From an uncultured Candidatus Saccharibacteria bacterium (GTDB taxonomy: Bacteria > Patescibacteriota > Minisyncoccia > UBA6257 > XYB1-36-10): a DNA stretch of 64,000 nucleotides. Position numbers and translations under genes: made by a program. The first letter of the stretch is position 1, and every line of letters starts with the position of its first letter. Below the pieces are notes generated by a model that was not told the DNA's origin, ran no database searches, and was given only the letters and a program-made list of their open reading frames with translations. The stretch lies in contig CAYIDJ010000001.1 in NCBI GenBank assembly GCA_964362215.1, positions 13,151 through 77,150 on the forward strand. The letters run 5' to 3'. Positions 6,251 to 58,156 of this stretch are shown piece by piece.

Positions 6251-6446
6251 AGATGCGGATGTTGATTAATTAGTGTCTTAATAAATATGCCTTAAGCGCG
6301 CATCCGAGCCCGAGCGGGCATGGTTCCGCCGAAGAGGCGGAGAGCGAGGGCGAGGCGTAGTGAAAACTCTCGCTGGGAGTTTGAACGGTAGCGAAAGGCA
6401 TATTTATTAAGACACGCCTACCTCGCATATTCCATTCATCCGCATC
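6251..6446. repeat. Family-2 structured element, copy 1 (conserved core AAGCGCGCATCCGAGCCCGAGCGGGCA...GAGCGAGGGCGAGGCGTAG...ACGGTAGCGA inside covarying outer stems)
   Basis: Outer stem gtgtcttaataaatatgcct/aggcatatttattaagacac (6273-6415), plus a further outer pair agatgcggatg/catccgcatct. Homologous copies lie at 57997 and 58914. Confidence 0.75.
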
Positions 6447-7491: not shown

Positions 7492-7573
7492 AGTAATTAT
7501 TTAATAAGCCGCGTCAAGTTGCCGCCAACAGCCAAAAGTCCCTTTTTTACAGCATAAATCGGTAACTAAATAC

Positions 7574-14021: not shown

Positions 14022-14117
14022 TTTAAACTTTAATATTTATTATCTTTCTTATAATTTGTAATTTAGAAATTAGGATTTATTTAGAGTTTAGGATTTAGAG
14101 TTTAGAGTTTAATCAAT

Positions 14118-19074: not shown

Positions 19075-19208
19075 TAAACAACTACCCTCCCAGAGGCGAA
19101 TACTATAGTCAACTAAACAAACTTAAAAGTAAAAAATCTTTTTGCTCAAAACCATAAGGCGCCTCGCCAACAAAATAAACATCGCAACCAACTAAACAGG
19201 ATGGAAAA

Positions 19209-19306
19209 GAAAAAACTTCCTTTCGAGACCGCGCGGAGCACGACGGTGCGAGTCAGAGTGATTTTTTAGCAAAAAAATACACGTGTCTCGAAAGGAAGTT
19301 TTTTCT
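19209..19306. repeat. Family-1 structured repeat, copy 2 (between convergent holA and rpsT)
   Basis: aaaaaacttcctttcgagACCGCGCGGAGCACGACGGTGCGAGTCAGAGTGATTTTTTAGCAAAAAAATACACGTGTCtcgaaaggaagtttttt. Confidence 0.8.
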
Positions 19307-20533: not shown

Positions 20534-20676
20534 TAAAACGACTTCTCCGCAAGACCGCGCGCCCGCCCGACCAGAACAACTAGTCGTTCGGGCGGGGAGT
20601 CCGCCAACTGGCGGACGAGTCAGAGTGATTTTTCAGCGGAAAAATACACGTGTCTTGCGGAGAAGTCGTTTTTATC
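20534..20676. repeat. Family-1 structured repeat, copy 3 (variant with a 50-nt insertion replacing helix P2)
   Basis: ...caagACCGCGCG[cccgcccgaccagaacaactagtcgttcgggcggggagtccgccaactggcgga]CGAGTCAGAGTGATTTTTCAGCGGAAAAATACACGTGTCttgc... The inserted segment itself forms two hairpins. Confidence 0.75.
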
Positions 20677-25570: not shown

Positions 25571-28500
25571 GTGGCCCCTAAATCAAAAAAAAGACTGTCG
25601 GTAAAACTACCGCCACCTGCGCCCGTCCCTCCAACAAACATCATTAACCTGCGTCCAGTTCCCCCGTCCTCTTCTAACCTTAATGCGCTGTCTTCTCCGC
25701 CTAAATGGCAAAGACGCCTGCTGGCCCAACAAGACGCCACCTCTTTCTTCTCTAAATCAAAAGAGGATAATCGTATCAATCACCTCCTTCCTTGGGCGGC
25801 CAAACTTCTCGTGCCCGACTTTATTATCGGCCACCCCAATCTGGGCGATAATCTTAAAGCCCTCTATCGGGCGCCGTTTTTTAAACCCCTCCGTCTGGCT
25901 ATAATCGGCTGGCTCATCTTCGTTCTCGCCTTCGGTTACACCGCCGTCAATTCTTTAAGGTACGGCCTTGAGGCCTTCGCCTCCACCTTCGCCGACGACA
26001 CCCAAGCCGAGTTTGACGCCGGCACTCACAGCGCCACCCAGTGGGACTCCGGCAACAGCTGGTTGGAGTTAACCACTGCCGGCCAAACCGCCGGCTCCGG
26101 CGATTTTACCTCTTCCATCAAGGATTCCGCCGTCACCGCCACCTGGAACTCCTTAGCTTGGGTTCCCAACCGCCCCACCGGCAAAGAACTGCCTAATAAC
26201 GCCAACTCTGAAACCGACTACACCACCGGCAATGCCAACATGACCGGAAATTTTGGCTTATGGCACTTAAACGAATCTTCTGGCACTCTCGCTGACAGCT
26301 CCGGCGGCGGACATACCGGCTCTTATAGCGGCTCCGGCTACTCCCAAACTGGTGCCCTTAATACTGCTTTAGGCGGCTTTAGTGGTTTTCCTCTTAATGT
26401 CGGTGATATTAATGATACTGACAACTCCGCCTATATGACTATTGAAATGTGGATCTACCCCATCACTCTTGGCACTATCAGAATATTGTCTATTAAATCT
26501 GGTTCCAGCCAAAATCAATATACAATTAGGACACAAAACACCGCCGGCGTTCAAGATGAACTCTATTTCTTTATTGCCTCTTCCCTTACCGACAGCTCTA
26601 CCTATTTCGGTACCTCTAACTTAAACTTAACCGCGGGCGCCTGGCAGCATTTAGCTTTTGTTTATGACGGTACTCTCGCCGCCGCTAACCGCGTTGCTAT
26701 CTATAGAAATGGCGTTGCCGCCTCCGGTTCCGTTAGTGGCACTATTCCCACCACCTTAACTTCCTCTACTGTATCCGCTTATTTTGGCAGTGGTGCCACC
26801 GGTGGTAATGCATCTGACTCAAATCTGGACGAAATCGCTATATATAGCCGCGCTCTCTCCGCCACCGAAGTCGCCGACCACTACAAACGCGGCGCCCTCA
26901 ACTTAAAATACCAAGTCCGCAGCTGTAATGATTCCGCCTGCTCCGGCGAAAGCTTCATCGGTCCCGACGGCACCGGCTCCGATTATTACTACTGGAAAAC
27001 AACCAACGCCACCACCACCCCCTCCTTCTCTCTCACTAACGTCTCCACTAACCGCTACTTCCAGTACAAAACCTATTTCACCACCAGCGACACTTCCTAC
27101 TCTCCGGAAGTAAAAAGTGTTACTGCTGACTACTCCAACCAAGCCCCCGCCACCCCTTCCAACTCTTCACCCTCTAACGGTGCCGCGCGCCAAGACCTTA
27201 ATGCCACCTTAACCGGCTCCGCCTACTCCGATAGCGAGAGTGACACTCAAGCCAACGCCGACTGGCAGGTGGACGACGACGCGGACTTTGCCACTCCCGT
27301 CTGGACCCGCACCGCCGGCGCCGGCGAAATCACCACCACTATCAACTCCACTAACGGCACCTTCGCCAACGAACTCTCTGGTAAAACTGAACTTGACCAC
27401 AACACTGTCTACTACTGGAAAGTCCGCTACGCCGACGGCGGCCAGTGGTCTAGCTACTCCACCGCCACCTCTTTCACCACCAACTCTATCGTCACTCCCA
27501 TTAACTCATCTCCCACCAGCACCTCTACCGTCGCTACCCTCACTCCCCTCCTTATCGTCTCCGACTTCTCCGACCCTCAAAGCGGCCACACCGGCGCCTA
27601 CGCCCAGTGGCAAATTGATAATAATATTGATTTTTCTTCTACTGCCTACGATTCGGGTACTGCCACTTACAGCGCTTCCCGCTCCATCCCTATCAACGCC
27701 CTCAATAATTCCACCCTTTATTACTGGCGTGTCCGCCACCAGGATTCATCCAGTCAGTGGTCCAGCTGGTCTACAACTACTTCTTTCTCTGTCCAAATTC
27801 CGGAATCATCCGTTACGGTTATACCAATTTTCGGCAACACCACCGTTGACCAGGGCGACACTGTTAAAATTGATATACAAGTGATTAACCTAACCACCGG
27901 CGACCCCATCAACGACGCCACCGCCACCATCTCCATCTTCAGTCCTGCCAGCGCCAAACTAGTAGACACAGCCGATATGTCGTACCTTTCCAGCTCCAAC
28001 GGCATCTACCGCTACTCCTATACCGTCCCTTCCACCAGCGGCAGCTATATCTACGAAGCCGCCTCCGGCTCCGGCAGTAAAGTCGGCTACACCGCCGCTA
28101 ACTTTGAAGTTCGCACCATTGCCGCCGACCTAACCTCTACCAAATCCACCGTCACCTCCGAAGCCACCGCTCAAGGTACCGAGCGCACCGCCCAATCCTC
28201 CGAACGCACTTCCCAAGCAACCGAACGAACATCCCAAGCCGCCGAAAGAACATCGCAGGCCACCTCTCGCACCGCCGTTACCGATATTCAAACTGACGTC
28301 AACGCTATCCAGTCTAATGTTGATATTTTGATTGGCGCCCTAATTGTCACCCAAAGCACCGTCAGCGATGCCTCTCCTTCCACTACCTCTTTTGACACCG
28401 CTCTCACTAACGCCACCAATGATTTTTATAACAACGCCGTCTTAACTTTCACTTCCGGCAATTTAGACGGTCAAAGCCGCCGCGTCTCCGACTACAACGG

Positions 28501-30862
28501 CACAACTAATGTCATAACCTTAGACCCCGCTTTAACCTCCGCCCCCGCTAATAGTGATGCTTTTACTATTGTCGCCCAAAATGTGCGCGTGGAAGAACAA
28601 CTAGCCTCCCACGAAACCTCCCAGTCCAGTTTCCGCACTTCCGTCACCTCCAGCTTAACCAGTATTGAAGGAAAAATTGACACTTTAACCACCACCCTAA
28701 ACACCGTGGACACCAACTTAAGCAGCGTCCAGTCTACCGTCAACTCACTCCGCACCTCCCAGCAAAAACTTTATCAGGTTAATCTTTCTGACGTTTCTGA
28801 AATCCAGGCCGGTAACACCTACCGCGCTAAAGTTATCGTCTTAGACTACCAATCTAACCCCGCTACTCCCTCCACCGCCCCCACCATCCTCATCCGCGAC
28901 GCCAGCCGCGTTCTGGCCCTGGCTACTACCACTATGACCGAACTCTCCACCGGCGTTTATGAATACACTTCCGCCGTTTCCTCCTCCGCCACCACCGGCC
29001 TCTGGGAGACCATCATTAATGTTGGCATCGGCGGCTCCGCCGATATCGTTCGCAATGACTACTGGCAGGTCACCGGCGCCCCGGCGCAGGTCCTCGTCAA
29101 CTCCATCAGCGACTCTTCTATTCCCTCTATTTCCGCTAACGTTACCATCACCAACGAGGGTGGTGGCGCTTACGAATATCAGTATGAATGGTGTGTCGTC
29201 TCCTCTCAAGACAACCAGTGCGGCGGCAATGATGACGTTTATTATGCCTCCGCCGCCAAACTAATTTCCGCCGGCGCCGACTTCAACCCCACCTTAACCG
29301 CCACCGTCTCTTCTGACGGCTCCTACTGGTTTAAGGTTGTCGTCTACTATGGCACCGCCGCCTCCGGCGCCTCCCGCTCCTTCACCACTTCCGCCGAAGA
29401 AAGTGCCTCTCTCCCCGCCAGTAGCGGCGCCGCCGGTATTGACGCCCCGCCCGCCGCCACCAACGCCAATATCTATCTCGCCATCAATAACGTCAAAAAC
29501 GACCTGGCGGCCAACTCCAAAAAACTGGAGCGCGCCCTGGAAGTTCTGGGCGCCATCAGTCCCTCTCTCCAAACCGTTCTTTCCGTCAACGCCGACAAAA
29601 TTGACAATCTCACCGACATCCAAAACAAAATCTCCGACTTGCGCGCCATCTCCTCCGCCACCCGCCGCCTAATTGAGCAATCTGTCGCCGAGCCGTTAGT
29701 GGAAACCTGGATGACCTTCAACTCCGTCCAGTTTAACTTCCTCATCAGCAACCCCCTTTCTGAAAACAAAACTCTGAAATTCAAATCCTATCTCCCCTCC
29801 GAAGTGAGGCCCGAACACATCATTGACCTAAGCGGACTTACTCTTGATTACGACCCCGCCGCCGGTAGCTACTTCGTCCATAGCGATATCACCCTCAGCG
29901 GCAACGAAACCATCACCAAAAAAGTGGAAATTAAAGACATCTGGACTTTCACCGACGAAGAAATTAAATCCCTCCGCGACCAGGCCGGTACTCTCTCCGC
30001 CCCTCTCTCCGGCACCCAGTACGATGCTCAAGGCGCCGTTCTCAAAAACGAAATTGAAGCTGTTTTAAATACGGTTCTTATCGGCCAGAAAGAAAACTAC
30101 CGCTCCCCCCAGGATCATATCGTTGCCTACCGTTCCAATAAAGAAAAAATTGATCTGGTTAAAAAGGACTTGGAAAAACTCAAGGATTTGGCCGTTTCCT
30201 CCGGCGCCTCCCGCGGTATTGTCGGCAGTGTCGGCGGCATCCAGACCTTTGCCACTTGGGGAATAATTCTGACCATGATTTCCGGTTTCGGAATTTTAGC
30301 AGCCGTTATCTTTTCTATGTGGCGCCATCAAACTATGCTGGCCGCCCTCGCTTTAGGCATTTCCAAAAAAGACATAGCGGTTGAATTCGGCCGCCGCCGA
30401 CAGCAACCGAAACCCACTTCTAAAATCATTCCCCGCGACCAATCCGACCCCTCCCCGCCCGACCCACCATCAGAACACCGCCTTATCGTCTCCGTTGTTG
30501 TTATTATCCTGGCCTTCCTCGCCTTCAAATTCCTGATTCCTCTACTCTCTTCCCGCTCCACTGAAATTAAAAGCGAAGATATCTCCGCTCTCCCCGCCGA
30601 CTCTTCCTCTCTTGCCTCCTCTATCTCTCCCGACACGGCTACTAACCTTCCGCCCTCTACCTATCTTCAAATCACCACTACCCCCACCGGCTGGCTCAAC
30701 GTTCGCAGTAACTCATCGCTTACCGGAGAAGTTCTAACCAAGGTCAACCCGGGAGAAAAATACGAATATATCTCCGTTCAAGACGATTGGTATGAAATTA
30801 TCTTAACTGACGGCCGTCATGGCTGGATTTCCAGCCAGTATGCCGCCAAAGTTTCCGAATAA
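25571..30862 (+). CDS. Giant cell-surface protein (1763 aa): N-terminal transmembrane anchor, LamG/concanavalin-like domain, two FN3-like domains, Ser/Thr-rich repeats and coiled-coil, two C-terminal transmembrane helices, C-terminal SH3b domain
   Basis: LamG_3 signature LDEIAIYSRALSATEVADHYKRG. Paired YYWKVRYADGGQWSSYSTATSFTT / YYWRVRHQDSSSQWSSWSTTTSFSV. Tandem ERTSQAT octapeptides. C-terminal SH3b-like segment GWLNVRSNSSLTGEVLTKVNPGEKYEYISVQDDWYEIILTDGRHGWISSQY. Confidence 0.75.
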   Translation: MAPKSKKRLSVKLPPPAPVPPTNIINLRPVPPSSSNLNALSSPPKWQRRLLAQQDATSFFSKSKEDNRINHLLPWAAKLLVPDFIIGHPNLGDNLKALYRAPFFKPLRLAIIGWLIFVLAFGYTAVNSLRYGLEAFASTFADDTQAEFDAGTHSATQWDSGNSWLELTTAGQTAGSGDFTSSIKDSAVTATWNSLAWVPNRPTGKELPNNANSETDYTTGNANMTGNFGLWHLNESSGTLADSSGGGHTGSYSGSGYSQTGALNTALGGFSGFPLNVGDINDTDNSAYMTIEMWIYPITLGTIRILSIKSGSSQNQYTIRTQNTAGVQDELYFFIASSLTDSSTYFGTSNLNLTAGAWQHLAFVYDGTLAAANRVAIYRNGVAASGSVSGTIPTTLTSSTVSAYFGSGATGGNASDSNLDEIAIYSRALSATEVADHYKRGALNLKYQVRSCNDSACSGESFIGPDGTGSDYYYWKTTNATTTPSFSLTNVSTNRYFQYKTYFTTSDTSYSPEVKSVTADYSNQAPATPSNSSPSNGAARQDLNATLTGSAYSDSESDTQANADWQVDDDADFATPVWTRTAGAGEITTTINSTNGTFANELSGKTELDHNTVYYWKVRYADGGQWSSYSTATSFTTNSIVTPINSSPTSTSTVATLTPLLIVSDFSDPQSGHTGAYAQWQIDNNIDFSSTAYDSGTATYSASRSIPINALNNSTLYYWRVRHQDSSSQWSSWSTTTSFSVQIPESSVTVIPIFGNTTVDQGDTVKIDIQVINLTTGDPINDATATISIFSPASAKLVDTADMSYLSSSNGIYRYSYTVPSTSGSYIYEAASGSGSKVGYTAANFEVRTIAADLTSTKSTVTSEATAQGTERTAQSSERTSQATERTSQAAERTSQATSRTAVTDIQTDVNAIQSNVDILIGALIVTQSTVSDASPSTTSFDTALTNATNDFYNNAVLTFTSGNLDGQSRRVSDYNGTTNVITLDPALTSAPANSDAFTIVAQNVRVEEQLASHETSQSSFRTSVTSSLTSIEGKIDTLTTTLNTVDTNLSSVQSTVNSLRTSQQKLYQVNLSDVSEIQAGNTYRAKVIVLDYQSNPATPSTAPTILIRDASRVLALATTTMTELSTGVYEYTSAVSSSATTGLWETIINVGIGGSADIVRNDYWQVTGAPAQVLVNSISDSSIPSISANVTITNEGGGAYEYQYEWCVVSSQDNQCGGNDDVYYASAAKLISAGADFNPTLTATVSSDGSYWFKVVVYYGTAASGASRSFTTSAEESASLPASSGAAGIDAPPAATNANIYLAINNVKNDLAANSKKLERALEVLGAISPSLQTVLSVNADKIDNLTDIQNKISDLRAISSATRRLIEQSVAEPLVETWMTFNSVQFNFLISNPLSENKTLKFKSYLPSEVRPEHIIDLSGLTLDYDPAAGSYFVHSDITLSGNETITKKVEIKDIWTFTDEEIKSLRDQAGTLSAPLSGTQYDAQGAVLKNEIEAVLNTVLIGQKENYRSPQDHIVAYRSNKEKIDLVKKDLEKLKDLAVSSGASRGIVGSVGGIQTFATWGIILTMISGFGILAAVIFSMWRHQTMLAALALGISKKDIAVEFGRRRQQPKPTSKIIPRDQSDPSPPDPPSEHRLIVSVVVIILAFLAFKFLIPLLSSRSTEIKSEDISALPADSSSLASSISPDTATNLPPSTYLQITTTPTGWLNVRSNSSLTGEVLTKVNPGEKYEYISVQDDWYEIILTDGRHGWISSQYAAKVSE

Positions 30863-31393: not shown

Positions 31394-31777
31394 TGTGGAG
31401 ATGATGGGAATTGAACCCACGTCCGATCTGGAAATTCAGTAACTTCTACAGGCGTATACTGGCTATTTTTTGCGTCGGCAAGTTTAAGCCAGTCGTAATG
31501 CTTGCCGCCGCCATCCCTGTGCCTTTTCCTCTTTGCTTCCGGTCTGCCGAAGCGAGAGTAAGTCCGCTTTTATAACACCGCTCTCCGTCCCCGCGAACAT
31601 AGAGACAGAACGATGGTCCCGAATATATATCGGAACGGTCAGTTCAGCTTAAGCGTAAGCTAAAGCCGGCTGCCTGTTGAATACATTGGCATGTATTATT
31701 TTTGACGCGTTTACGGCCGCCGTCCCACCGGCCTGCTATTACTGATTTTCTTCAACCGTCGATGCCTTGCATCCCCT
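31394..31777 (-). ncRNA. ssrA: tmRNA (SsrA)
   Basis: 5' GGGGATGCAAGGCATCGACGG.... 3' tRNA-Ala-like end GTGGGTTCAATTCCCATCATCTCCA with a G3:U70 pair and A73. The internal frame GCC AAT GTA TTC AAC AGG CAG CCG GCT TTA GCT TAC GCT TAA gives tag ANVFNRQPALAYA. smpB is adjacent. Confidence 0.8.
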
Positions 31778-31880
31778 ACCTTATTCCCAACTTCTTACCC
31801 AAGAAGATGAAAATCTGTTTTGGAAATTATTTTCGAGGCTTATCAGAACTTAGACGCTCCAATATCTCTATCCTTATCAG

Positions 31881-32031
31881 CCATCCCCATAATGTCTTGA
31901 GGGGCGCGTCGGAGCTCGCCGCGCTTGGTCCAAACACTCAAGATAATTGAGTACTTGGGCGGCGGGCGAGACTGAGAGCGGACGGCCGCTGGAGCCGTCC
32001 GACTCGTCCCCGATGGATATTATGGGGATGG
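31881..32031. repeat. Family-4 MITE-like element (151 nt, 13-bp terminal inverted repeats ccatccccataat/attatggggatgg), copy A
   Basis: Near-identical to 39657-39807. The interior has hairpins actcaa-gataa-ttgagt and ggacggc-cgctggag-ccgtcc. Confidence 0.8.
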
Positions 32032-32083
32032 CTGTTTCAGTAAATTGCGGATCAACCGCCAAAATAACTTCCAAAACATTTAT

Positions 32084-32524
32084 TTACATTTTCAATATTC
32101 TATCAATCTTCCTGACTGCCTCCTTCTTCTTTATCTTCTCCCTCTTATCATACTTCTTTTTCTTTCTTCCCACTCCTAAGAGCACCTTTACTCTTCTTCC
32201 CTTATTATACACTTTCAAAGCCACTATTGTCAAGCCGCGTTCCTCCGATTTTCCTCTCAATCTTTCTATCTCCTGCCGGTGCAGCAGCAGCCGCCGCGTC
32301 CGGCTGGAATCAAAACCATCTGGTTCATTCCCCGGCTGGTACGGCGCGATTTCCGTTCCCACCAAATACGCCTCTACCCCGCGCACAATCGCCTGCGCTC
32401 CCGTTATCTGCATCTTCCCCGCCCGCGCCGCCTTCACCTCAAATCCGGTCAGCTCTATCCCCGCCTCTATTTCCTCTATTATTTCATAATCAAACCTTAC
32501 CCTTTTGTTCTCCGCTAATGCCAT
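32084..32524 (-). CDS. smpB: SsrA-binding protein SmpB
   Basis: MALAENKRVRFDYEIIEEIEAGIELTGFEVKAARAGKMQITGAQAIVRG... Start trimmed to Met at 32524. The longer ORF extends into non-homologous sequence. Confidence 0.85.
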   Translation of the reverse strand: MALAENKRVRFDYEIIEEIEAGIELTGFEVKAARAGKMQITGAQAIVRGVEAYLVGTEIAPYQPGNEPDGFDSSRTRRLLLHRQEIERLRGKSEERGLTIVALKVYNKGRRVKVLLGVGRKKKKYDKREKIKKKEAVRKIDRILKM

Positions 32525-38184: not shown

Positions 38185-39549
38185 CTATTCCCCAAACACC
38201 TCCTTAACCGGCACCAGCTTCGGATCAGTCGGTAAAGTAAAGTAAAAAGTGCTGCCGCGGTTCAAGGTAGATTCCGCCCACACCTGTCCTCCGTGCTGTC
38301 GAATGACGTTTTTGGCGATATAAAGCCCCAGTCCCGTCCCCTCCGTCTGGAATTTCAAAACATTACTCCCTCGGAAAAACTTAGTGAAAAGGTTGCGCAC
38401 CTCCTCCGCCGGCACTCCCACGCCCGTGTCCGTAATTGACACTTGTATGAACGGTTCTCCCTTTTTCCTCTCCATCTTTACAATCACCTCGCCGTTCTTC
38501 ACGTTGTACTTAATGGCATTATCCAAAAAATTATCCACGGCGATTGCCAGCCGCTTTGCGTCAATTTTTAGGTTTATACTCTCCTCCCCCTGCGGCCGGT
38601 CGTAATAGATGTTTATTCCGTACTGCTTGGCCACCGTCATCTTCTGCGCCAATATATTCTCCAGGAAACTTATAAACTCCACTTCCTGCATCTGGTAGCC
38701 GAACTGTCCCTCCTCTATTCTAGTCACATCCAATAAATCGTTTACTGTCTTTAACGCTTTCGCCGTCGCCTCCCGCCCGTTAACGATAAACTGCCGCATC
38801 GACTCCGGCATCACCTTCTCGTCCGCTAACGTCTCAAACGTCCACGCAATGGCGTTCAGCGGCGTCCGTAACTGATGCGCCGCCACCGTTACAAATTCGC
38901 TCTTTGTCCGCGCCGACTCTATCTCTCTCGTCCGGTCCCGCACAATCTTCATAAAACCCAAGAGTTTCCCCATGCCGTCCAGTATCTTGACCGTCGTCAC
39001 CCGCACCTCCAATACCGGATCTTCAAAAGAAATATCCGTTGTTTGCGGGAAAACTCCCGCCTCCGACCGTATCACCGCCACCGGCGCCAGTGACGGGAAC
39101 ATCACCTGCGCCAGCCGCCGCCATTCCCTCTGTTGAGCGTAGGCGGGCGTAAACTCCTTGCCCTTTATCTCCTGCCCGCTTACGGAAAAAATCCTCTCCG
39201 CCGCCTGATTAAAAACCTGAATCTGAAAATTGGGGTCATAAAAAATAACGCCGTCCTGCAAACTCACGATAATGCTCTGAAAATGCTGTTTTTCCGTCTG
39301 CACGGCGAAATTCGCTTTCGCCAGCCGGAAACTGCTTATAAAAATTATCGTCGCCATTACCAAAAAAACGAACGCGTTTAACGTCACCAGTGACCGCGGA
39401 AAAATAAACATCTGGATTACGGTAAGCCCCACCGCGATCACGGCAAAAATCCAGAACATCTGCATGTCTTTCTGTTTGGAGTAAAAATTTATCTCCTCCC
39501 AGCTTCTCTTTATCCGTCCCATTACTTTTATTATACCACCCCTCCGCAT
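38185..39549 (-). CDS. Sensor histidine kinase (two transmembrane helices, PAS-like region, HisKA, HATPase_c). No response regulator in the vicinity.
   Basis: H-box VAAHQLRTPLNAIAW. N, G1 and G2 boxes (DNAIKYN, ITDTGVGVP, GTGLGLYIAKNVIRQHGG). Confidence 0.85.
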   Translation of the reverse strand: MRRGGIIKVMGRIKRSWEEINFYSKQKDMQMFWIFAVIAVGLTVIQMFIFPRSLVTLNAFVFLVMATIIFISSFRLAKANFAVQTEKQHFQSIIVSLQDGVIFYDPNFQIQVFNQAAERIFSVSGQEIKGKEFTPAYAQQREWRRLAQVMFPSLAPVAVIRSEAGVFPQTTDISFEDPVLEVRVTTVKILDGMGKLLGFMKIVRDRTREIESARTKSEFVTVAAHQLRTPLNAIAWTFETLADEKVMPESMRQFIVNGREATAKALKTVNDLLDVTRIEEGQFGYQMQEVEFISFLENILAQKMTVAKQYGINIYYDRPQGEESINLKIDAKRLAIAVDNFLDNAIKYNVKNGEVIVKMERKKGEPFIQVSITDTGVGVPAEEVRNLFTKFFRGSNVLKFQTEGTGLGLYIAKNVIRQHGGQVWAESTLNRGSTFYFTLPTDPKLVPVKEVFGE

Positions 39550-39656
39550 CTATTCCCTCCCATCAACCACCTCACCTAGAAAAATGTAGGGAAATCAAAT
39601 ATAGGCAACTCATAAATACACTTTCGCGCAGTTCTGAATCATAATTTTTTTAGCAA

Positions 39657-39807
39657 CCATCCCCATAATGTCTTGAGGGGCGCGTCGGAGCTCGCCGCGC
39701 TTGGTCCAAACACTCAAGATAATTGAGTACTTGGGCGGCGGGCGAGACTGAGAGCGGACGGCCGCTGGAGCCGTCCGACTCGTCCCCGATGGACATTACG
39801 GAGATGG
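39657..39807. repeat. Family-4 MITE-like element, copy B
   Basis: Identical to copy A except for 3 substitutions in the right terminal inverted repeat. Located between the histidine kinase gene and polA. Confidence 0.8.
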
Positions 39808-39836
39808 TTGCGTGTTTAGTAACAACACTAATATAC

Positions 39837-42320
39837 TTATAAACTCTTCATCTCTCCCCAACTTTCCCCTCTCTTCACTTCCACCCTAAGCGGCACTGCT
39901 AATTTGAACGCCTCCTCCATCTTTTTTCTTATCATCTTTACCGCCTCCGCCTCCATCTCTTTTTTAACCTCAAATAGCAAATCATCGTGTATCGTCAACA
40001 GCATCTTCACCTTCTCCCCCCACCCCCGCCCCTCCACCTCTTTATCAACCGCGATCATCGCCAGTTTTATAATATCCGCCTCCAGTCCCTGTATCGGCAT
40101 ATTCATCGCCACTCTCTCTCCCTGCGCCGCGAACCGCGGCGAGTTTGACTGTATTTCCGGAATAATTCTTCTTCTTCCCGTCATTGTTTGTGCGTACCCC
40201 AATGTTCGCGCCTCCCGCTTGATATACTCCTGCCATCGCCTCACTGCGTCAAACTCGGTAAAATATTTTTCAATCTTTTCCTTTGCCTCCGCCACCGTAA
40301 CTCCCGCCGTCTCCGCGAACGCTCTCGCTCCCATTCCGTAAATCACCCCAAAATTAAGCACCTTAGCTACCCGCCGCATCTCCGGCGTAACCGCCTTCGG
40401 CTCCACGTTAAATATCCCCGCCGCCGTCTCCGCGTGTATGTCTCTCCCTTCCCGAAAGGCCTCTATCATCTTCCCATCGTGCGCCACCGCCGCCAGTATT
40501 CGCAACTCCACTTGCGAGTAATCAAAAGACAGAAAAACATTTCCTTTATCCGGCCTAAACGCCCCTCTTAACTCCACCGCCGCCTCTCCTCCGTACGGAA
40601 TGTTCTGCAAATTCGGCTGTTCCGAAGATAATCTTCCCGTCCCCGTTCCCGTCTGCAAATACGTTGTCCTCAACCGCCCTAAACTCCGACCTCCGCTATC
40701 GGCGTCACCCTCCACCATCTCCAATATCGGCTCAATGTAAGTGGAAAGTATCTTAAACGCCTCGCGGTATTCCAATATCAGCGACACAACCGTGTGCTCT
40801 CCTTTAATCCGCGTCAAGTTTTCATAACTCGTGGATATCGCCCCGCCCATCGTCTTCCTCACCTTTTTGGTATCAATTTTCAACTCCTCAAACAGCACCT
40901 TACCCATCTGTTTCGGTGAATTAATATTAAACGCGCGCCCCGCCGCCCCGTATATCTTCTTTTCCAGTTTGCTTATCTCACTTTTTACTTTCACCCTTAA
41001 GCTTTCTAACTTGCTCGCGTCCACCTTTATTCCCCTCTCCTCCATTCTCGCCAGTACCGGCAACAACGGCATCTCTATATTCTGAAACACATTTTTTAAT
41101 CCCTGCTCTTCCAACTCCTCCATCAGCCACCCGTATGCTTCCGCTATCTCATCTTTTGTCCCTCCGTATTCTCGCTTCAAAAATCTCTTGCTAACGTACT
41201 CTGGGCTGTAATCTCGCGCGTCCGGATCCAGTAGCCAAAATCCCACTCCCAAATCACCATACGGTCCCGCCAGTCCTTTTTTAATCTCCTCCTTCAGCTC
41301 AAACCCCACCTTAACCTTTCTGCTTCTCTTATCCTCTTCGGATAAATTTTCTCCTCTCCTAACCACCATCATCTCTCCCTTTAACTTTTTTTTCGGATTT
41401 ATAATTTCAAGGTTTGCGCCGGCAAACTCCCCCAATTTTTCATTCCTCATCCGCTTTACCAAACTCCCAAACCCAAGCTTCTCAAAAAATTTACCCAACC
41501 TCTCCTTATCCGCCGCCACCTCAAGTTCGTTAAGTTTCCCGAACTCAATCGGCGCCTGCCGGTTTATTATTGCCAGTTTTTTACTCTCCATCGCCTGCCT
41601 CTCCTGTCCCACTAACTTCTTAAATCGCCGGTCTTCAACATCAAGATTCTTATAAATCTCCTCAATCGTCCCGAATTCCTGCAAAAAACCGACTGCTGTT
41701 TTCGGCCCCACTCCTCTCACTCCCTTTATATTGTCGGACGCGTCCCCCACCAACCCCTTATAATCCGGTATCGCCTCCGGCCCCACTCCAAATCTCTCCC
41801 TCACCGCCGCCTCGTCGTAAACTTTCATCTGACTCACCCCTTTTCCGAATGTTTCCACCGTCACCTCTTCCGCGTCCGAAACCAATTGCGTCTCATCTAA
41901 ATCTCCCGTCAGCACCACCACCTTTCCCGCCCTCCCCTTAAATTTTTCCACCGCTGTCCCGATTAGGTCGTCCGCCTCGTATCCCGGCAGTTCAAATGTC
42001 TTAATGTTGAAAGCCCGGAACAGTTCCCGCGCTTTTATAATCTGCGGCACTAAGTCCTCGTCTGTCTCCACTCGCGTTGCTTTATACGTCTCGTCCATCT
42101 GGTGCCGAAACGTTTCCTCCGGCCGGTCAAAACACGCCAATATATAATCCGGCTTTCTCTCCTCTAATATCTTTAGCAGTACGTTTGCTAGTCCGTAAAG
42201 CGCCCCCGCCGGCTCCCCTGCCGCGTCCGTCAGCGGCGGCAAAGCATGATACATTCGATGTATCAGCGCGTTGGCATCCACTAAAATCAGCAACCCCTTA
42301 TTTTTATTTTCTCCTTTCAT
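39837..42320 (-). CDS. polA: DNA polymerase I (5'-3' exonuclease plus polymerase domains)
   Basis: N-terminal 5' nuclease (LLILVDANALIHRMYHA), motif B RRVAKVLNFGVIYGM, motif C IHDELLFE. Confidence 0.9.
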   Translation of the reverse strand: MKGENKNKGLLILVDANALIHRMYHALPPLTDAAGEPAGALYGLANVLLKILEERKPDYILACFDRPEETFRHQMDETYKATRVETDEDLVPQIIKARELFRAFNIKTFELPGYEADDLIGTAVEKFKGRAGKVVVLTGDLDETQLVSDAEEVTVETFGKGVSQMKVYDEAAVRERFGVGPEAIPDYKGLVGDASDNIKGVRGVGPKTAVGFLQEFGTIEEIYKNLDVEDRRFKKLVGQERQAMESKKLAIINRQAPIEFGKLNELEVAADKERLGKFFEKLGFGSLVKRMRNEKLGEFAGANLEIINPKKKLKGEMMVVRRGENLSEEDKRSRKVKVGFELKEEIKKGLAGPYGDLGVGFWLLDPDARDYSPEYVSKRFLKREYGGTKDEIAEAYGWLMEELEEQGLKNVFQNIEMPLLPVLARMEERGIKVDASKLESLRVKVKSEISKLEKKIYGAAGRAFNINSPKQMGKVLFEELKIDTKKVRKTMGGAISTSYENLTRIKGEHTVVSLILEYREAFKILSTYIEPILEMVEGDADSGGRSLGRLRTTYLQTGTGTGRLSSEQPNLQNIPYGGEAAVELRGAFRPDKGNVFLSFDYSQVELRILAAVAHDGKMIEAFREGRDIHAETAAGIFNVEPKAVTPEMRRVAKVLNFGVIYGMGARAFAETAGVTVAEAKEKIEKYFTEFDAVRRWQEYIKREARTLGYAQTMTGRRRIIPEIQSNSPRFAAQGERVAMNMPIQGLEADIIKLAMIAVDKEVEGRGWGEKVKMLLTIHDDLLFEVKKEMEAEAVKMIRKKMEEAFKLAVPLRVEVKRGESWGEMKSL

Positions 42321-43423: not shown

Positions 43424-43495
43424 TTCCTAAAATAATTTAATTTTGGTTGGTTAACCTAATCTTCCTCGCTAAAAAATTTAACATCTACACTGTAA

Positions 43496-43592
43496 GAAAA
43501 AGCTTCCTTCCGAGACCGCACGGAGCACGACGGTGCGAGTCAGAGTGATTTTTCAGCAGAAAAATACACGTGTCTCGGAAGGAAGCTTTTTC
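43496..43592. repeat. Family-1 structured repeat, copy 4 (3' of ruvB)
   Basis: gaaaaagcttccttccgagACCGCACGGAGCACGACGGTGCGAGTCAGAGTGATTTTTCAGCAGAAAAATACACGTGTCtcggaaggaagctttttc. Confidence 0.8.
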
Positions 43593-43634
43593 TGAAAGAC
43601 AAAAGACACAAGAAGACAAACTGTACATCTAATA

Positions 43635-44736: not shown

Positions 44737-44836
44737 AGAAAAAGCTTTCTTTCGAGACCGCGCGGAGCTCGACTGGAGCGAGTCAGAGGGATTTTTTAGC
44801 AAAAAAATACCCGTGTCTCGGAAGGAAGCTTTTTCT
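44737..44836. repeat. Family-1 structured repeat, copy 5 (preceded by a promoter-like TTGACAAACAC...TATAAA at 44711-44736)
   Basis: gaaaaagctttctttcgagACCGCGCGGAGCTCGACTGGAGCGAGTCAGAGGGATTTTTTAGCAAAAAAATACCCGTGTCtcggaaggaagctttttc. Confidence 0.8.
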
Positions 44837-44926
44837 GAATATAAGCGCTATCCATTGACTCATTATCAATACTATGCTATAATAAGGCAGTTTTGGACAA
44901 ATTACCCTATCTCGCCTCTCTTTGAT

Positions 44927-45078
44927 TAAAAAACTTGGATCTGTGGGCAGGAGCTAAACTACGCTTTAGGAAGGGTTGGTTCACGCTAATCCTCACCTCT
45001 GTTTAGTTCTAATTCTTCTTTTTAAGAAGTTACACACCACCCCGGCTTCGCCGGGCCGCCCACAGATCCAAGTTTTTT
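44927..45078. repeat. 152-nt element bounded by a perfect 21-bp inverted repeat (aaaaaacttggatctgtgggc / gcccacagatccaagtttttt)
   Basis: Single copy in this window. The interior holds a hairpin ccccggcttcgccgggg. No ORF. Confidence 0.6.
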
Positions 45079-45304
45079 AGTTCCTTCTCCCCAACAACCC
45101 CCCACTAGTCGAGAGATACCGACACTAAAATATAAAAATAAACTAAGAAAGACGAGTTTTTTATTTACTAAACCGCATACCTGCTAGTTTCTAACGAGAA
45201 ACCCTTTTAACTTAAACTTGCATGAGTAGTGTTTAGCTAATATATTTAAGCGCGCATAGATGTGTTGTCAGTCAATATATTAATTACACACTAAACAGCA
45301 TCGT

Positions 45305-45414
45305 GGAAGCCAAGCTTTCTGTTTGCTGGACCGCGCGGAGCTCGACTGGAGCGAGTCAGAGGGATTTTTTAGCAAAAAAATACCCGTGTCCGGCAAATAG
45401 AAAGATTGGCTTCC
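45305..45414. repeat. Family-1 structured repeat, copy 6 (outer stem identical to copy 1; part of a duplicated composite with a Family-2-like fragment at ~45250-45300)
   Basis: gaagccaagctttctgtttgctggACCGCGCGGAGCTCGACTGGAGCGAGTCAGAGGGATTTTTTAGCAAAAAAATACCCGTGTCcggcaaatagaaagattggcttcc. Confidence 0.8.
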
Positions 45415-49768: not shown

Positions 49769-49820
49769 CTACTTTGTAATTTTGAATTTTGATATTGTTT
49801 AGGATTTAGAGTTTATATTT

Positions 49821-50279: not shown

Positions 50280-50440
50280 GACTCCTGCTCTTTTATGCTT
50301 TGTTGTTATAAACAAAAGCCTGCCAAAATTTTTGTGCGAGTAAAAACTTAGACGGGCTACCTTAAGTCTAACCTCTACCTCCCAATAGAGGTTGTAGTCA
50401 TCATTAAAAAAGAAAATCAAATATGTAAACCGAGGCGAGG

Positions 50441-50534
50441 GCGGCTTTTTCCATAAGACCGCGCGGAGTCCGACGGGACGAGTCAGAGGGATTTTTTAGC
50501 CAGAAAATACCCGTGTCTTATGGAAAAAGCCGCC
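50441..50534. repeat. Family-1 structured repeat, copy 7 (between convergent ruvC and the class A PBP)
   Basis: gcggctttttccataagACCGCGCGGAGTCCGACGGGACGAGTCAGAGGGATTTTTTAGCCAGAAAATACCCGTGTCttatggaaaaagccgcc. Confidence 0.8.
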
Positions 50535-50566
50535 CGAAGCCGCGACCTTCTTTTATCTAACACAAA

Positions 50567-53432: not shown

Positions 53433-54536
53433 TCACGACTTCACCGGCATTAGAATATAAATATAAGAATCATCACTTGAATCCTTTATTGCCGTCGGTT
53501 TGTCTTTAAAATTAACTTTCAATTTTATCTCTCCCCCTTTTACCGACCTAATACCGGATAAAAGATAGTGCCAGTTAAAAACAACTTTTCCCCCTCCTCC
53601 CGCCACCTTTGCCGGCACTAAATATTTATTTTCCCCAACCCCCTGACTCATTGATGTAATCTCTATAAAATTCTTATTCACGGCCAGAGTCACATCCGAT
53701 ATTTTACTGGATAAAACACTGACTACTTTAAGCGCCGTCACCATCTCCTCTTTTAAAGCTACCACCTCTGTATCGTAAGCGCTTGGAATTATTTGTTTAT
53801 AATCAGGAAAACTACCGTCAATTAAATGAGATACTATCATCACCCCCTCTCCCGAAAACATAATTTGATTTGAATCAATATAAATCTTAACCTCTTCTCC
53901 TTCCGGTAAAACCCTAATTAATTCGTTTACTGTTTTAAGCGGCGCAATTAAAGACCAACCCTCATCGCCCTTCAGAGAAAATTCGTCTTTATAAATAATT
54001 CTTTCCGCTAAACGAAAACTGTCTGTTCCCGCTATTCTTAATTCATTATTTTCTGCCGATATAAAAATTCCGTTTATCTCTGGCCTTAATTCGGAAAACG
54101 TCGTCGCTGACATCACTTGCGCTATTATTTCTTTTAATCTCGCCGCTGGTAAAATTAAAACTGGATCTTTATTGGTAATATTTGGAATAATCGGAAAATC
54201 ATCAACGGCTAAAGTTTGAATTTGTGCCTCATAATTATCCGTTTGAATGTTAAATTTATCTTTTTCTGTGCTTAAATTAACCACCTCACTCGTTAGATTT
54301 GAAATTATTGAGCTAAAAACACCAGCTGGTACTGTTACCGCTCCCGACTCAATAATCTTTCCCGGACATATCTGTGTCACTCCTATCTCTAAATTTGTCG
54401 CCGATAGTTTTATCTCTCCATTATCAACTTTAATTAATAAATTCTTAAGTATTGGTAAATTAGAAGATTCATTGCAAATTTTTGCCACAATTTCCACCAC
54501 TCTTTTTAAATTATTTTTTACAAATACTAATTTCAT
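53433..54536 (-). CDS. dnaN: DNA polymerase III beta sliding clamp
   Basis: MKLVFVKNNLKRVVEIVAKI..., 367 aa with three-domain clamp organisation, immediately downstream of dnaA. Confidence 0.85.
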   Translation of the reverse strand: MKLVFVKNNLKRVVEIVAKICNESSNLPILKNLLIKVDNGEIKLSATNLEIGVTQICPGKIIESGAVTVPAGVFSSIISNLTSEVVNLSTEKDKFNIQTDNYEAQIQTLAVDDFPIIPNITNKDPVLILPAARLKEIIAQVMSATTFSELRPEINGIFISAENNELRIAGTDSFRLAERIIYKDEFSLKGDEGWSLIAPLKTVNELIRVLPEGEEVKIYIDSNQIMFSGEGVMIVSHLIDGSFPDYKQIIPSAYDTEVVALKEEMVTALKVVSVLSSKISDVTLAVNKNFIEITSMSQGVGENKYLVPAKVAGGGGKVVFNWHYLLSGIRSVKGGEIKLKVNFKDKPTAIKDSSDDSYIYILMPVKS

Positions 54537-54667
54537 TCTTAAAATCTAACTCTCTTTATATTATATATATTTATTATTATAGTAATACTTTATCTTTTCC
54601 TGTTAAAAACAATAAATTATCCACTATTTAACGTATTTTAATATATAATAAGATGTTAATAATATGT
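54537..54667. other. Candidate oriC segment (AT-rich dnaA-dnaN intergenic region with a DnaA-box TTATCCACT)
   Basis: 131 bp, ~85% AT, with TTATCCACT at 54617-54625 (8/9 match to TTATCCACA). Flanked by dnaA and dnaN. Confidence 0.4.
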
Positions 54668-56029
54668 TTAACTCTTGTATATTAATTCCTTTATTAAATT
54701 AACTTTTTGGTTTAAATTACTATTTTTTAATATTTCCTTGTTTATTTTTTCACAGGCATGGATAGCGGTTGTGTGGTCTCTCTTCCCCACCTTATCCCCA
54801 ATAAAAGGATAAGACATACTTAAAACATTACGGAGTAAATACATTATTATCTGCCTTGGTTCCACTATCTCTTTTTTTCTTGATTTTCCTACTAAATCAC
54901 TTATTGGGACCTCATAAAAATCAGCTACTGCCTTAATAATCTTATTTGGATTAACATTCTTATTACTTTGATTGTTTTTACTTATTATATCTTCTACCAC
55001 TTCCTCCGTAATTTGTATATTTTTACTTTCTTTTACGAATATTATTTTATTTAATATCCCCTCTATTTCTCTTATGTTTTTGGTTAATTTATTAGCTATT
55101 AAACTCACCACCGGCTCGTCCAGGGAATGGTGGCATTCCTGCAATTTTGTCTTTATTATCGCCATTCTCATCTCATAGTCGGGATAACTGATATCAACCG
55201 TCATTCCCCCCTCAAACCGGCTTCTTAAGCGCTCCTGTAACGTTGGTAATTCACTGGGTGGACGATCGGAAGAAATTATAATCTGCTTGTTAATTGAGTG
55301 TAAAGCGTTAAAAGTGTGAAAAAATTCTTCCTCCGTCTTTTCTTTACCTCCAATAAACTGTATATCGTCTATAATTAAAGTATCCACGTTCCGGTAGCGG
55401 CTCTTTATATCCTCCATCCGCTTATTTTTTATAGCCCAAACCACGTCGCTAACGAACCTTTCTGAAGTCACATACTTGACGGAAACCACATCTTTATACA
55501 TAGCCATAATCTCATTGCCGATTGACTGTATTAAATGGGTTTTTCCCAACCCCACCCCTCCGTAAATAAACAGCGGATTGTACTTTACTCCCACATTTTT
55601 TACTACCGCCTGCGCGGCGGCAAAAGCCAGCTCATTAGCCGATCCCACCACAAAGTTTTTGAATGTATATTTAGGATTAAGATTGGTGTTCGGGTTTATT
55701 TTAAACTCCGGAAACATCATTTGCGCGGAAGGCATATAAGCCGTTTTAGCTTTATGCGACAATGTTAACGCCTTAAATATCCCCCCCGACACCACAAACT
55801 CCACTTTTCTGGCGGAAGAATCCAAATTGCGCAGTACGCTTAAAATATTTTTATTATATTTATTTTCCACCCACTCCTTTGAAAAATTATTTGGCAGTGC
55901 TATCACAAAAGTGCCGGCATCGTCCTTATCTACTAATTTACTGTTCTTAAGCCAGGTATGAAAATTAGCGTGAGTCAGCTGAACTTCCATTTCCCCTAAT
56001 ACCGATTCCCAAATTTTTTCCAACTCCAT
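54668..56029 (-). CDS. dnaA: Chromosomal replication initiator protein DnaA
   Basis: AAA+ Walker A GGVGLGKTHL, sensor motifs, and the C-terminal DNA-binding domain (DHTTAIHACEKI). Confidence 0.9.
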   Translation of the reverse strand: MELEKIWESVLGEMEVQLTHANFHTWLKNSKLVDKDDAGTFVIALPNNFSKEWVENKYNKNILSVLRNLDSSARKVEFVVSGGIFKALTLSHKAKTAYMPSAQMMFPEFKINPNTNLNPKYTFKNFVVGSANELAFAAAQAVVKNVGVKYNPLFIYGGVGLGKTHLIQSIGNEIMAMYKDVVSVKYVTSERFVSDVVWAIKNKRMEDIKSRYRNVDTLIIDDIQFIGGKEKTEEEFFHTFNALHSINKQIIISSDRPPSELPTLQERLRSRFEGGMTVDISYPDYEMRMAIIKTKLQECHHSLDEPVVSLIANKLTKNIREIEGILNKIIFVKESKNIQITEEVVEDIISKNNQSNKNVNPNKIIKAVADFYEVPISDLVGKSRKKEIVEPRQIIMYLLRNVLSMSYPFIGDKVGKRDHTTAIHACEKINKEILKNSNLNQKVNLIKELIYKS

Positions 56030-56228
56030 ATTAATTTAGAAACATTATACTCTCTTTTTTTAAAAAACACTTACCCCGTCAAATTTAGTCAGTTTATTTT
56101 ACCCTGTCCCACTCCTCTTTCCAACCTAAAAATCTGTAGGAACGCCGTTGACGCGCCGTGTCAATGACATTTCTACCTTCCTCCCACTTTTGATTTTTTT
56201 ATTTAATTCTGCTACATTTATAGCGCTT

Positions 56229-56363
56229 ATGTCCCAAACTTATCAACCTAAAAAGAAAAAACGCCGCCGCACCCACGGTTTTCTGAAACGCCGCCGCACC
56301 CCTACCGGCCGCAATGTTCTCTCCCGCCGCCGCCGCAAAGGCCGTCGCCGCCTCGCCGTTTAA
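56229..56363 (+). CDS. rpmH: 50S ribosomal protein L34
   Basis: [44 protein letters not shown]. Start trimmed from the longer ORF. Confidence 0.9.
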
Positions 56364-56417
56364 TTTAATCATTACTTTTTAGTACAAATTTGCCCGCCAG
56401 CCAATATTATTTATCTT

Positions 56418-56738
56418 ATGCTGGCCAAGAAATATAAACTGTCCTCTTCTTCCTTTCCCCGTCCCTCTCACCTCGGCCGCTCCGGACGTTATCTGTCCGT
56501 AAACCTCTCCCCTACCTCCCTCCCTTTCAGCCGTTTTGGAATTATTGTCAGCTTAAAGTATGATAAGCGTGCTGTCGCTCGCCACCGCCTCAAAAGAGAA
56601 ATCTTTGAACTTATCAGAAAAACCGGCGCTTTCCGTGTTCCCGGCCATGACATTGTTGTTGTTGTCAAAAAAGGAGTAACCTCCGTCGACCTGATTCCAA
56701 TTACTAAAGAGGCCTCCTCTCTACTCTCCAATCTCTAA
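56418..56738 (+). CDS. rnpA: Ribonuclease P protein component
   Basis: Follows rpmH. Basic, with an RNR-like motif (KRAVARHRLKR). 106 aa. Confidence 0.75.
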   Translation: MLAKKYKLSSSSFPRPSHLGRSGRYLSVNLSPTSLPFSRFGIIVSLKYDKRAVARHRLKREIFELIRKTGAFRVPGHDIVVVVKKGVTSVDLIPITKEASSLLSNL

Positions 56739-56741
56739 CTT

Positions 56742-57494
56742 ATGACTTTTTTATTTAACGAAATTCTCTATCGTCCCATCCTCAACGCTTTAGTGTTGGT
56801 TTATAACCATCTTTCCTTTGGTAGTTGGGGACTGGCGGTTATTATCATTACCGTCATCATCCGGATTATTCTCTTTCCTTTCTTCCATAAAGCCAGCCGC
56901 AGCCAGGCGATTATGCAGAAAATTCAACCCCAAATAAAAGACATTACTGATCGCCATCAAAACAACAAAGAAAAGCAAATGAGAGAGATAATGGCTCTCT
57001 ATCAAAAACATCGCGTCAACCCTTTTTCCAGCTTTGGCCTTCTCTTTATTCAACTGCCCGTGCTGATTGCTCTTTATCTTGTTTTTTTACGCGGTCTAAC
57101 TCCCGACAACCTTTCTCTTCTCTACTCCTTCGTCTCCGCGCCTCTTCATGTTGACTTCACCTTTCTATGGTTGATAAATCTAAAAGAAAGTAGTATTATA
57201 ATTGTCGTTGTCGCCGCCGCTCTCCAGTACCTTCAGGCCCGCCTTAGTCTGCCGCGCCGGCAACCCGCGGCCGCCGTTTCTTCCGCCGAACGCCTAGGGC
57301 GTCAAATGTCTTTTATCGGCCCGGTTGTTACTCTCCTCGTTTTAATCAATCTCCCCTCGGTTATCGGTATTTACTGGATAACAACTTCCGCTTTCTCTAT
57401 CTTCCAGCAGCTTATTATCAATCGCTCTCTATCCGACTCTAACTACCAAGAACATGGACCAGACGGAAACAAAAACAATCAAACCAATCCTTGA
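56742..57494 (+). CDS. yidC: Membrane protein insertase YidC (short Oxa1-like form)
   Basis: Five-transmembrane core with conserved RILLFPF...MQKIQPQIKDI...MALYQKHRVNPFSS segments. Confidence 0.85.
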   Translation: MTFLFNEILYRPILNALVLVYNHLSFGSWGLAVIIITVIIRIILFPFFHKASRSQAIMQKIQPQIKDITDRHQNNKEKQMREIMALYQKHRVNPFSSFGLLFIQLPVLIALYLVFLRGLTPDNLSLLYSFVSAPLHVDFTFLWLINLKESSIIIVVVAAALQYLQARLSLPRRQPAAAVSSAERLGRQMSFIGPVVTLLVLINLPSVIGIYWITTSAFSIFQQLIINRSLSDSNYQEHGPDGNKNNQTNP

Positions 57495-58147: not shown

Positions 58148-58156
58148 ATTTCCTCT

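Follow-up and report, generated by a model that had tools for sequence, protein, structure and literature searches.

In the 64,000-nucleotide (nt) stretch of an uncultured Candidatus Saccharibacteria bacterium analysed here (contig CAYIDJ010000001.1; the whole stretch is referred to as the window), an element with inverted-repeat ends, designated family 4, occurs in two near-identical copies of 151 nt, one of them inserted between smpB and the transfer-messenger RNA (tmRNA) gene ssrA. What kind of element is this, and by which means was it copied? The original prediction took it for a non-autonomous element resembling a miniature inverted-repeat transposable element (MITE), moved by a transposase encoded elsewhere. 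The reading favoured here, held with moderate confidence, is that family 4 is a two-copy subfamily of lineage-restricted, non-coding repeats of about 100-160 nt that are structure-dependent, strand-specific and non-autonomous, and that resemble REPINs or IS200/IS605 elements. Family 4 and its relatives are classified among the bacterial structured intergenic repeats that cannot move on their own.

The two copies, at 31881-32031 (copy A) and 39657-39807 (copy B), are direct repeats, both on the + strand and identical at 148 of 151 positions, and the three mismatches (32018 T/C, 32023 T/C and 32026 G/A) all fall in the right arm, as first reported. Copy A ends in CCATCCCCATAAT and ATTATGGGGATGG, which are perfect inverted repeats. 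In both copies the palindrome extends three bases outward, as CAG...CTG in A (full palindrome 31878-32034) and as CAA...TTG in B (39654-39810), a difference that is compensated; counted from CCATCC...GGATGG, three to four additional complementary bases are found outside (CAG/CTG in A, GCAA/TTGC in B). A search of the window by blastn-short returned the two copies, of 151-157 nt, and no more; one homologue is known from the relative L044. One frame is open across the element on the minus strand, yet no evidence of coding was found, and its concatenated six-frame peptides, a query aimed at spurious open reading frames (ORFs) on other copies, had no match in a library of 5.8 billion proteins.

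The original prediction had named a larger segmental duplication as the finding that would speak against it. The flanks of A and B are unrelated right up to the helix, and the copies are therefore not parts of such a duplication. Several short-read contigs do stop inside the element, which could point to an artefact of assembly, but the distance from these contig ends to the innermost position where A and B differ is almost exactly k-1 bases (k = 31 or 55), which is to be expected of a true two-copy repeat in a de Bruijn graph, more copies not being required, and copy B is read through in the independent assembly L001. It is therefore extremely improbable that the pair goes back to a segmental duplication or to an artefact of assembly.

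Fold of family 4 and comparison with other repeats

Compared with shuffled sequences, the element folds with unusual stability on both strands (-91.8 kcal/mol, z = -8.7 on the + strand; -78.8 kcal/mol, z = -8.3 on the - strand). A Y-shaped fold is common to A, B and the L044 homologue. Its closing helix is 17-20 bp long and its clamp is GGGG/CCCC; of the two hairpins that they enclose, hairpin 1 is long and hairpin 2 contains a bulged A. In copy A, read on the + strand, the closing helix P1 is formed by the 5' arm CAGCCATCCCCATAATGTCT (31878-31897), which is the left inverted repeat first reported, and by the 3' arm GGATATTATGGGGATGGCTG (32015-32034), where all three copy-B substitutions fall. 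The GGGG clamp, which pairs with CCCC at 32008-32011, is followed by the junction CGCGUCGGA (clamp and junction together 31901-31913), common to other repeat families. Hairpin 1 (31914-31967) has a conserved base helix, GCUCGCCGC/GCGGCGGGC, and a tip (about 31927-31958) that is swapped in L044 for an unrelated perfect hairpin, CCCCGUUAGAAAC...GUUUCUAACGGGG. Then follow the junction GAGACUGA (31968-31975), which reads GAGUCAGA in the D-type elements described below, and hairpin 2 with its bulged A (GAGCGGACGG-CCGCUGGA-GCCGUCCG-A-CUC, 31976-32005), in which GG/CC is replaced by AA/UU in L044.

The L044 sequence (ENA ERZ27293400) comes from a relative whose kinase is 87% identical, on a contig that starts inside the family-4 homologue. 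Between the window and L044 four pairs have changed on both sides, two of them in the closing helix (A-U to C-G; C-G to U-A) and two in hairpin 2 (both G-C to A-U), and two one-sided changes remain paired as wobbles, with no broken pair between copy A and the homologue. In the alignment of the three sequences 98.4% of cells are paired, against 36-48% with the partners slid. From three sequences alone, this compensated pairing is suggestive rather than statistical proof. No known RNA family accounts for the fold: in Rfam 15 only the tmRNA and tRNAs reach the gathering score over the whole window, and searches with permissive thresholds, E<=10 for copy A and E<=5 for the D-type and D5 elements, found nothing relevant, a negative result that covers self-cleaving ribozymes and Y-RNA-like families. 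A tRNA- or tmRNA-like identity of the element was rejected, ARAGORN being negative.

Two covariance models were used for the comparison with other repeats, one (R1) built from family 4 only and the other (R2) from nine D-type elements with family 4 excluded. R1 matches nine other repeats of the window at 25.7-38.7 bits on the + strand (at most 14 bits on the reverse strand) and also matches elements of the relatives L005 and L044. Conversely, R2 detects family 4 on that same strand, with 34.7 bits for A, 28.1 bits for B and 22.2 bits for the L044 homologue, the reverse strand scoring 13.5 bits. The parts follow one another in a common order: closing helix, clamp, CGCG(U)CGGAGCnC, hairpin 1, GnGCGAG(U/A)C..AGAG, hairpin 2, CGU and closing helix. 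The strings shared at the junction are CGCG(U)CGGAGCUCG, GCGAG and AGAG, and the clamp is GGGG/CCCC, GGAC/GUCC or AGAC/GUCU. On these model scores, family 4 is likely, though not proven, to be related to the D-type and other repeats of the window.

All nine repeats were found by R1 on the + strand. Seven are of the D-type: 810-919 (closing helix AGAAGCCAA...), 19208-19306 (closing helix AGAAAAAAC.../...GUUUUUUCU), 20535-20672 (with extra hairpin modules in hairpin 1), 43495-43593, 44737-44836, 45305-45414 and 50439-50535. The two others, at 6273-6415 and 57993-58151, are of the D5/D7-type; both have the hairpin-2 loop CGCUGG that is also found in family 4, and the former has a perfect closing helix of 21 bp. 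At 20535-20672, as well as at 1617-1746 of L044, the extra modules nested in hairpin 1 are UCCGCC-AACU/CACU-GGCGGA and a long hairpin beginning GCCCGCCCGA..., and this indicates that hairpin 1 is a modular insertion point, as in the family-4 homologue of L044. Between clpP and tig (58909-58961) the D5 repeat occurs a third time, as a partial copy that is 87% identical to 57992-58044.

Pairing is conserved in the D-type elements too. In the alignment of nine sequences 98.8% of cells are paired, against 38-55% in slid controls, and 22 of the 41 pairs have changed on both sides, a number reached by none of 500 shuffles. The junction does not vary, whereas the closing helices are very unlike in sequence (AGAAGCCAAGCUU..., AGAAAAAACUUCC..., GGGCGGCUUUUUCC..., AAAACGACUUCUCC...). 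When two copies come from one genome, most of the differences between them are compensated pairs; between the elements at 19208 and 43495, for instance, six of the seven substitutions make up three compensated pairs. The non-Watson-Crick appositions of the D-type elements, read on the + strand, are eight G.T and no A.C. The strand bias of the genome favours T>C and G>A on the + strand, the same kind of change as in copy B, and would create A.C appositions; the excess of G.T despite this bias argues that folding of the + strand is what matters.

Age, turnover and orientation

In L044 a clear family-4 homologue stands at the orthologous site, upstream of the kinase gene, and copy B must therefore be older than that split. 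Copy A differs from B at few bases and is thus the recent copy; by this sequence comparison, A is shown to be young and B old. The inference of recent mobility that had been drawn from near identity consequently applies to copy A, but not to copy B, whose counterpart at the orthologous site has diverged. Of the three positions at which the copies differ, L044 matches B at one and A at two; a single derived change thus falls to A, and the other two (T>C and G>A, + strand) fall to B.

The spacers concerned differ among relatives. The smpB-ssrA spacer measures 307 nt with family 4 in the window, 252 nt with a D-type element in L005/L006, where SmpB is 88% identical, and 37 nt with no element in the more distant relative L046; in L009 the 76 nt next to smpB show no family-4 end. 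Between polA and the kinase gene, the window and L044 have family 4, L045 has a D-type end, and neither L046 nor L047 has an element. The kinase-RNase J spacer contains an element in L044 but none in the window. In relatives whose neighbouring proteins are 63-66% identical the element is absent. Over short evolutionary distances the same spacers acquire, lose and exchange elements, and this turnover among close relatives indicates that mobility is real.

Elements also appear to pile up in the same spacers. The ruvB-pilB spacer (785 nt) holds three elements in all, with 44924-45082 between two D-type elements; the former is a palindrome with a perfect closing helix of 25 bp (UAAAAAACUUGGAUCUGUGGGC...), three internal hairpins and an unrelated core (z = -10). 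Beside the D-type element in the kinase-RNase J spacer of L044 lies a fragment (1747-1860) resembling the D5/D7 junction, in which CGGATGCGCGCTCGAG is the reverse complement of AGCGCGCATCCG. L046 (GCA_028709185.1, 63-64% protein identity), which is without family 4 or D-type elements, has its own perfect palindrome of 25 bp around a small GGCC hairpin, downstream of RNase J (7494-7570).

All 11 elements of the 64 kb have the + orientation, in a window where about 40% of the genes are on the + strand. About one in six intergenic spacers bears such a folded repeat of 100-160 nt, and the neighbours are core housekeeping genes on both strands. Given flanking genes on both strands, the uniform orientation follows the DNA strand and not the genes. 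By spacer class, elements are found in 4/8 convergent, 4/24 tandem -, 1/8 divergent and 0/17 tandem + spacers, that is, in half of the convergent spacers compared with 5 of the 49 others, and 10 of the 11 elements adjoin at least one gene 3' end.

The DNA strands are themselves strongly asymmetric. GC skew is about -0.30 in each 2-kb window across 1-64000 and is also seen in L001, L005, L044, L046 and L047. At third codon positions, genes on the + strand have a skew of -0.66 and genes on the - strand one of +0.56 (coding strand), which makes the asymmetry independent of the direction of transcription, and relatives down to 33% G+C share it. A canonical origin neighbourhood lies at 53433-57903, with dnaN and dnaA (-) followed by rpmH, rnpA, yidC and jag (+), and is A+T-rich (34% G+C at 54-56 kb). 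The skew keeps its sign across the dnaA region; either replication starts at another place, or bidirectional replication from the dnaA locus is not what sets the skew. The 11 elements share one orientation in a window where the skew is uniform and nowhere inverts. A strand-specific insertion mechanism or a strand-biased target motif could each give rise to this uniform orientation.

Candidate mechanisms of movement

In the favoured reading, the element would be recognised and copied as a folded single strand of + polarity, either single-stranded DNA or RNA, by an enzyme encoded elsewhere in the genome. Such an enzyme would read structure and junction sequence rather than end sequences, as HUH/Y1 transposases do with REP/REPIN and IS200/IS605 ends, and selection on the ability to propagate would explain why same-genome copies differ by compensated pairs. 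Once inserted downstream of genes, the element probably acts also as an RNA hairpin at transcript ends. This side effect is plausible because of the enrichment in convergent spacers and of the A-tract/U-tract found at some D-type helix ends; on the other hand, for copies A and B it is weighed down by a better-paired + strand that is antisense to all four neighbouring genes and by the lack of a U-tract.

A classical MITE would instead be an internally deleted derivative of an insertion sequence, mobilised in trans by a DDE transposase that binds terminal inverted repeats (TIRs) of 13-16 bp. The perfect inverted repeats of copy A, the small size without an ORF, the two near-identical copies at unrelated loci, the presence/absence differences at orthologous sites among relatives and, if the boundaries are freely chosen, the TA dinucleotides near both ends can all be read in this way. 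However, no consistent target-site duplication (TA included) was found around 13 elements, and the flanks tcag|cc and aa|cc, which the original prediction had singled out for this purpose, are not duplicated at the right side. The inverted-repeat arms are the least conserved part, with compensated changes in L044 and a quite different sequence in related elements that share the core; variable arms around a conserved internal junction are the opposite of what is expected for an end-binding transposase. A single orientation for all the elements is likewise unexpected for a cut-and-paste TIR element, no transposase is encoded in the 64 kb, and no element having these ends emerged from scans of public collections.

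The further copies that the original prediction proposed to look for were sought in the searchable collections, where only the source organism's own contig and chance matches were obtained. Exact-pattern scans gave no copy with both ends and a gap or with a single end and the outer CAR in genomes, nor with the hairpin-1 tip in metagenomes and viral contigs; with a single end plus inner bases, the metagenomes yielded the contig of the source organism itself and no other, and the core motif gave nothing beyond chance matches on viral contigs. Chance pattern matches were checked by blastn, by reading of the sequence and by covariance model. Neither family 4 nor a D-type element had a BLAST match among phages or plasmids. 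The absence of duplications, the failure to find a transposase and the poor conservation of the ends argue against a TIR/DDE mechanism, not against mobility. Consequently, the MITE-like description stands as regards a small, non-coding, repeated element that turns over without moving itself, and falls as regards target-site duplication, conserved ends and the TIR/DDE mechanism, so that a classical MITE is an improbable explanation.

Derivation of the closing helix from a palindromic target is unsupported: only one left boundary is clean (kinase-RNase J spacer), and there the empty site of the window is without a hairpin. Two other candidates were rejected. Repeats of a diversity-generating retroelement are not compatible with differences that are not adenine-specific, with copies that both lie outside ORFs and with the lack of a reverse transcriptase, nor is a retron msr/msd with many copies and no adjacent reverse transcriptase.

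A host-functional RNA acting in cis, such as a bidirectional terminator, a 3'-end stabiliser or a processing site, could also be duplicated occasionally and selected at each locus, its mobility being incidental. The frequent contact with gene 3' ends and the preference for convergent spacers would fit this explanation, as would the A-tract and U-tract (A6/U6) that flank some D-type closing helices in the manner of bidirectional terminators, and the retention of copy B at the same site in L044 with its structure preserved. Nevertheless, orientation tracks the DNA strand, and the better-paired strand of A and B is the antisense one for each neighbour. An intrinsic terminator is a G+C-rich hairpin followed by a U-tract, and family 4 is followed on the + strand by CUGUUUCAG (A) or UUGCGUGUUUAG (B), with no U run on the - strand either; terminator and promoter scans at both copies detected nothing at the elements. 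More distant relatives have no element in these spacers, and close relatives have different element types in the same spacer. Selection as a cis-acting RNA is therefore unlikely as the primary explanation. The very stable fold, its conservation between species and the G.U pairs on the + strand might otherwise suggest two paralogous, stand-alone small-RNA genes of the + strand. Yet A, B and the L044 copy share no promoter-like sequence upstream, their flanks being unrelated up to the helix; they have no U-tract terminator and no Rfam match, and they are absent from relatives with 63-66% identical neighbouring proteins, which leaves this last explanation very little weight.

Several observations weigh against copying as a folded single strand. 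What ties family 4 to the D-type elements is the strand-specific scoring by the models, together with about 25 junction nt at equivalent positions of the structure; a sequence-only D-type profile did not detect family 4, and generic long palindromes (44924-45082 of the window; 7494-7570 of L046) reach 20-35 bits as well, although the scores of their two strands are about equal. Pairing is kept on the + strand, which is the C-rich one; as GC skew is usually interpreted, the lagging-strand template that becomes exposed would be the other strand, although the direction of replication is uncertain here, as the skew does not invert at dnaA. Under such a skew, the uniform orientation could result from a strand-biased target motif. 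The fixed flanking tetranucleotide needed by IS200/IS605 is not conserved, the left flanks being GTTT, ATTA, GAAA, AGAT, TTAT, TTTA, TGTA, ATAA and others. The compensated changes could come from arm-to-arm repair within hairpins and not from selection. Finally, no transposase, integrase or reverse transcriptase was found by Pfam among the ORFs of the window, and after the collection scans the known family-4 set still consists of two copies and one L044 homologue.

REPINs and repetitive extragenic palindromic (REP) sequences, served by the HUH Y1 transposase RAYT, are likewise short intergenic non-coding long hairpins without target-site duplication, which keep their stem pairing, are enriched downstream of genes and rely on an enzyme encoded elsewhere. 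Unlike the present elements, they conserve the REP stem and vary the loop, whereas here the junction is conserved and the closing helix varies; they have no counterpart of the three-way junction, and no RAYT gene is present among the ORFs of the window. PATEs derived from IS200/IS605 are similar in the recognition of hairpins folded on one strand, in an orientation tied to the strand, and in needing neither terminal repeats nor target-site duplication. They differ in having separate subterminal hairpins and inserting 3' of a fixed tetra- or pentanucleotide, whereas here one helix closes the whole and no flanking motif is seen, nor was a TnpA gene found in the window. By analogy, the element may come closest in its working to REPINs or IS200/IS605, but membership cannot be claimed, as the fixed target motif was not found and a transposase was sought in the 64-kb window only.

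The Correia elements of Neisseria, ERIC/IRU, BOX and RUP of Streptococcus, and RPE of Rickettsia have in common with the present repeats a size of 100-160 nt, an intergenic position, inverted-repeat ends and stable RNA folds, and BOX shares a modular interior. Such elements are often co-transcribed with neighbouring genes, and an RPE lies inside a Rickettsia ssrA gene. In contrast to the present repeats, Correia and RUP elements keep their inverted repeats conserved and are flanked by TA duplications. None of these families resembles the present repeats in sequence, the Rfam, phage and plasmid searches being negative, and none is known for a uniform orientation or for a conserved junction inside a hypervariable, covarying closing helix. 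Integron attC sites resemble the elements in giving structure precedence over sequence, in having one active folded strand, one orientation and a size of 57-141 nt, and in lying downstream of genes, but they are a mirror image: attC conserves its outer R boxes (RYYYAAC/GTTRRRY) and varies the centre, where the reverse is found here. An identity with attC was rejected, since the outer ends (CAGCCAT..., AGAAGCC..., GTGTCTT... and others) are without R''/R' boxes and the window contains no integrase (intI) and no cassette array.

It is possible, but rather unlikely, that these repeats make up a class of structure-defined mobile elements of candidate phyla radiation (CPR) bacteria not described before, in which the conserved three-way-junction core would be either a small catalytic RNA or the site that a single-strand transposase or recombinase recognises or cleaves, and which would spread in one orientation, coupled to replication, to occupy about 2% of a streamlined genome. 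No description of such repeats in CPR bacteria was found in the literature. CPR genomes are very small and streamlined, yet folded repeats turn over in this one, including at the essential loci smpB-ssrA and polA. If a mechanism that reads single-strand structure were true, a mobilising enzyme would have yet to be found in this lineage, and the elements would provide a strand marker for replication where GC skew and the position of dnaA disagree. In practice, such repeats break short-read assemblies and cause spurious ORF calls, for example a 66-amino-acid gene over a D-type element in L044.

Genomic context and neighbouring features

By exact protein look-ups, the window belongs to a Paceibacterota (CPR) population of Hainich groundwater (well H43, 0.1 um fraction; ENA ERZ1292626/29/32, Logan ERR3858116), and SmpB is found on an 80.6-kb NCBI contig as well. 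An extension past the window by way of the NusA contig yielded no more than 1.7 kb. The insertion sites are those given in the original prediction. Copy A lies between smpB (32084-32524) and ssrA (31395-31776, supported by Rfam and ARAGORN), outside the tmRNA gene itself, and copy B between polA (39837-42320) and the HisKA histidine-kinase gene (38185-39522, with M10 as the true start); all four neighbours are on the - strand. An equal spacing of A and B from their downstream gene was only apparent and vanished once the kinase start was set to M10.

Within the smpB coding sequence, a sigma-70 promoter consensus that is perfect at 12 of 12 positions (TTGACA, 18-nt spacer, TATAAT) was observed at 32204-32233 on the - strand, about 430 nt upstream of ssrA and pointing toward element A. 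An extended -10 box, TGGTATAATAAAAG, is located a few bases upstream of the kinase start (39528-39540, - strand) and is conserved in L044 (239-251), L045, L046 and L047; its closeness to the start suggests a leaderless or near-leaderless mRNA.

Elsewhere in the window, A+T-rich short repeats based on TTTAGGATTTAGAG occur in three intergenic regions (3718-3768, 14059-14109 and 49770-49820), and toxin-antitoxin genes (HigB-like; HicA and HicB) are found at 1594-1854 and 2770-3319, beside a cluster of tRNA genes. An ORF of 1763 amino acids on the + strand (25571-30862) has Laminin_G_3, Ig-like, MG2 and SH3_3 domains and probably encodes a giant surface protein.

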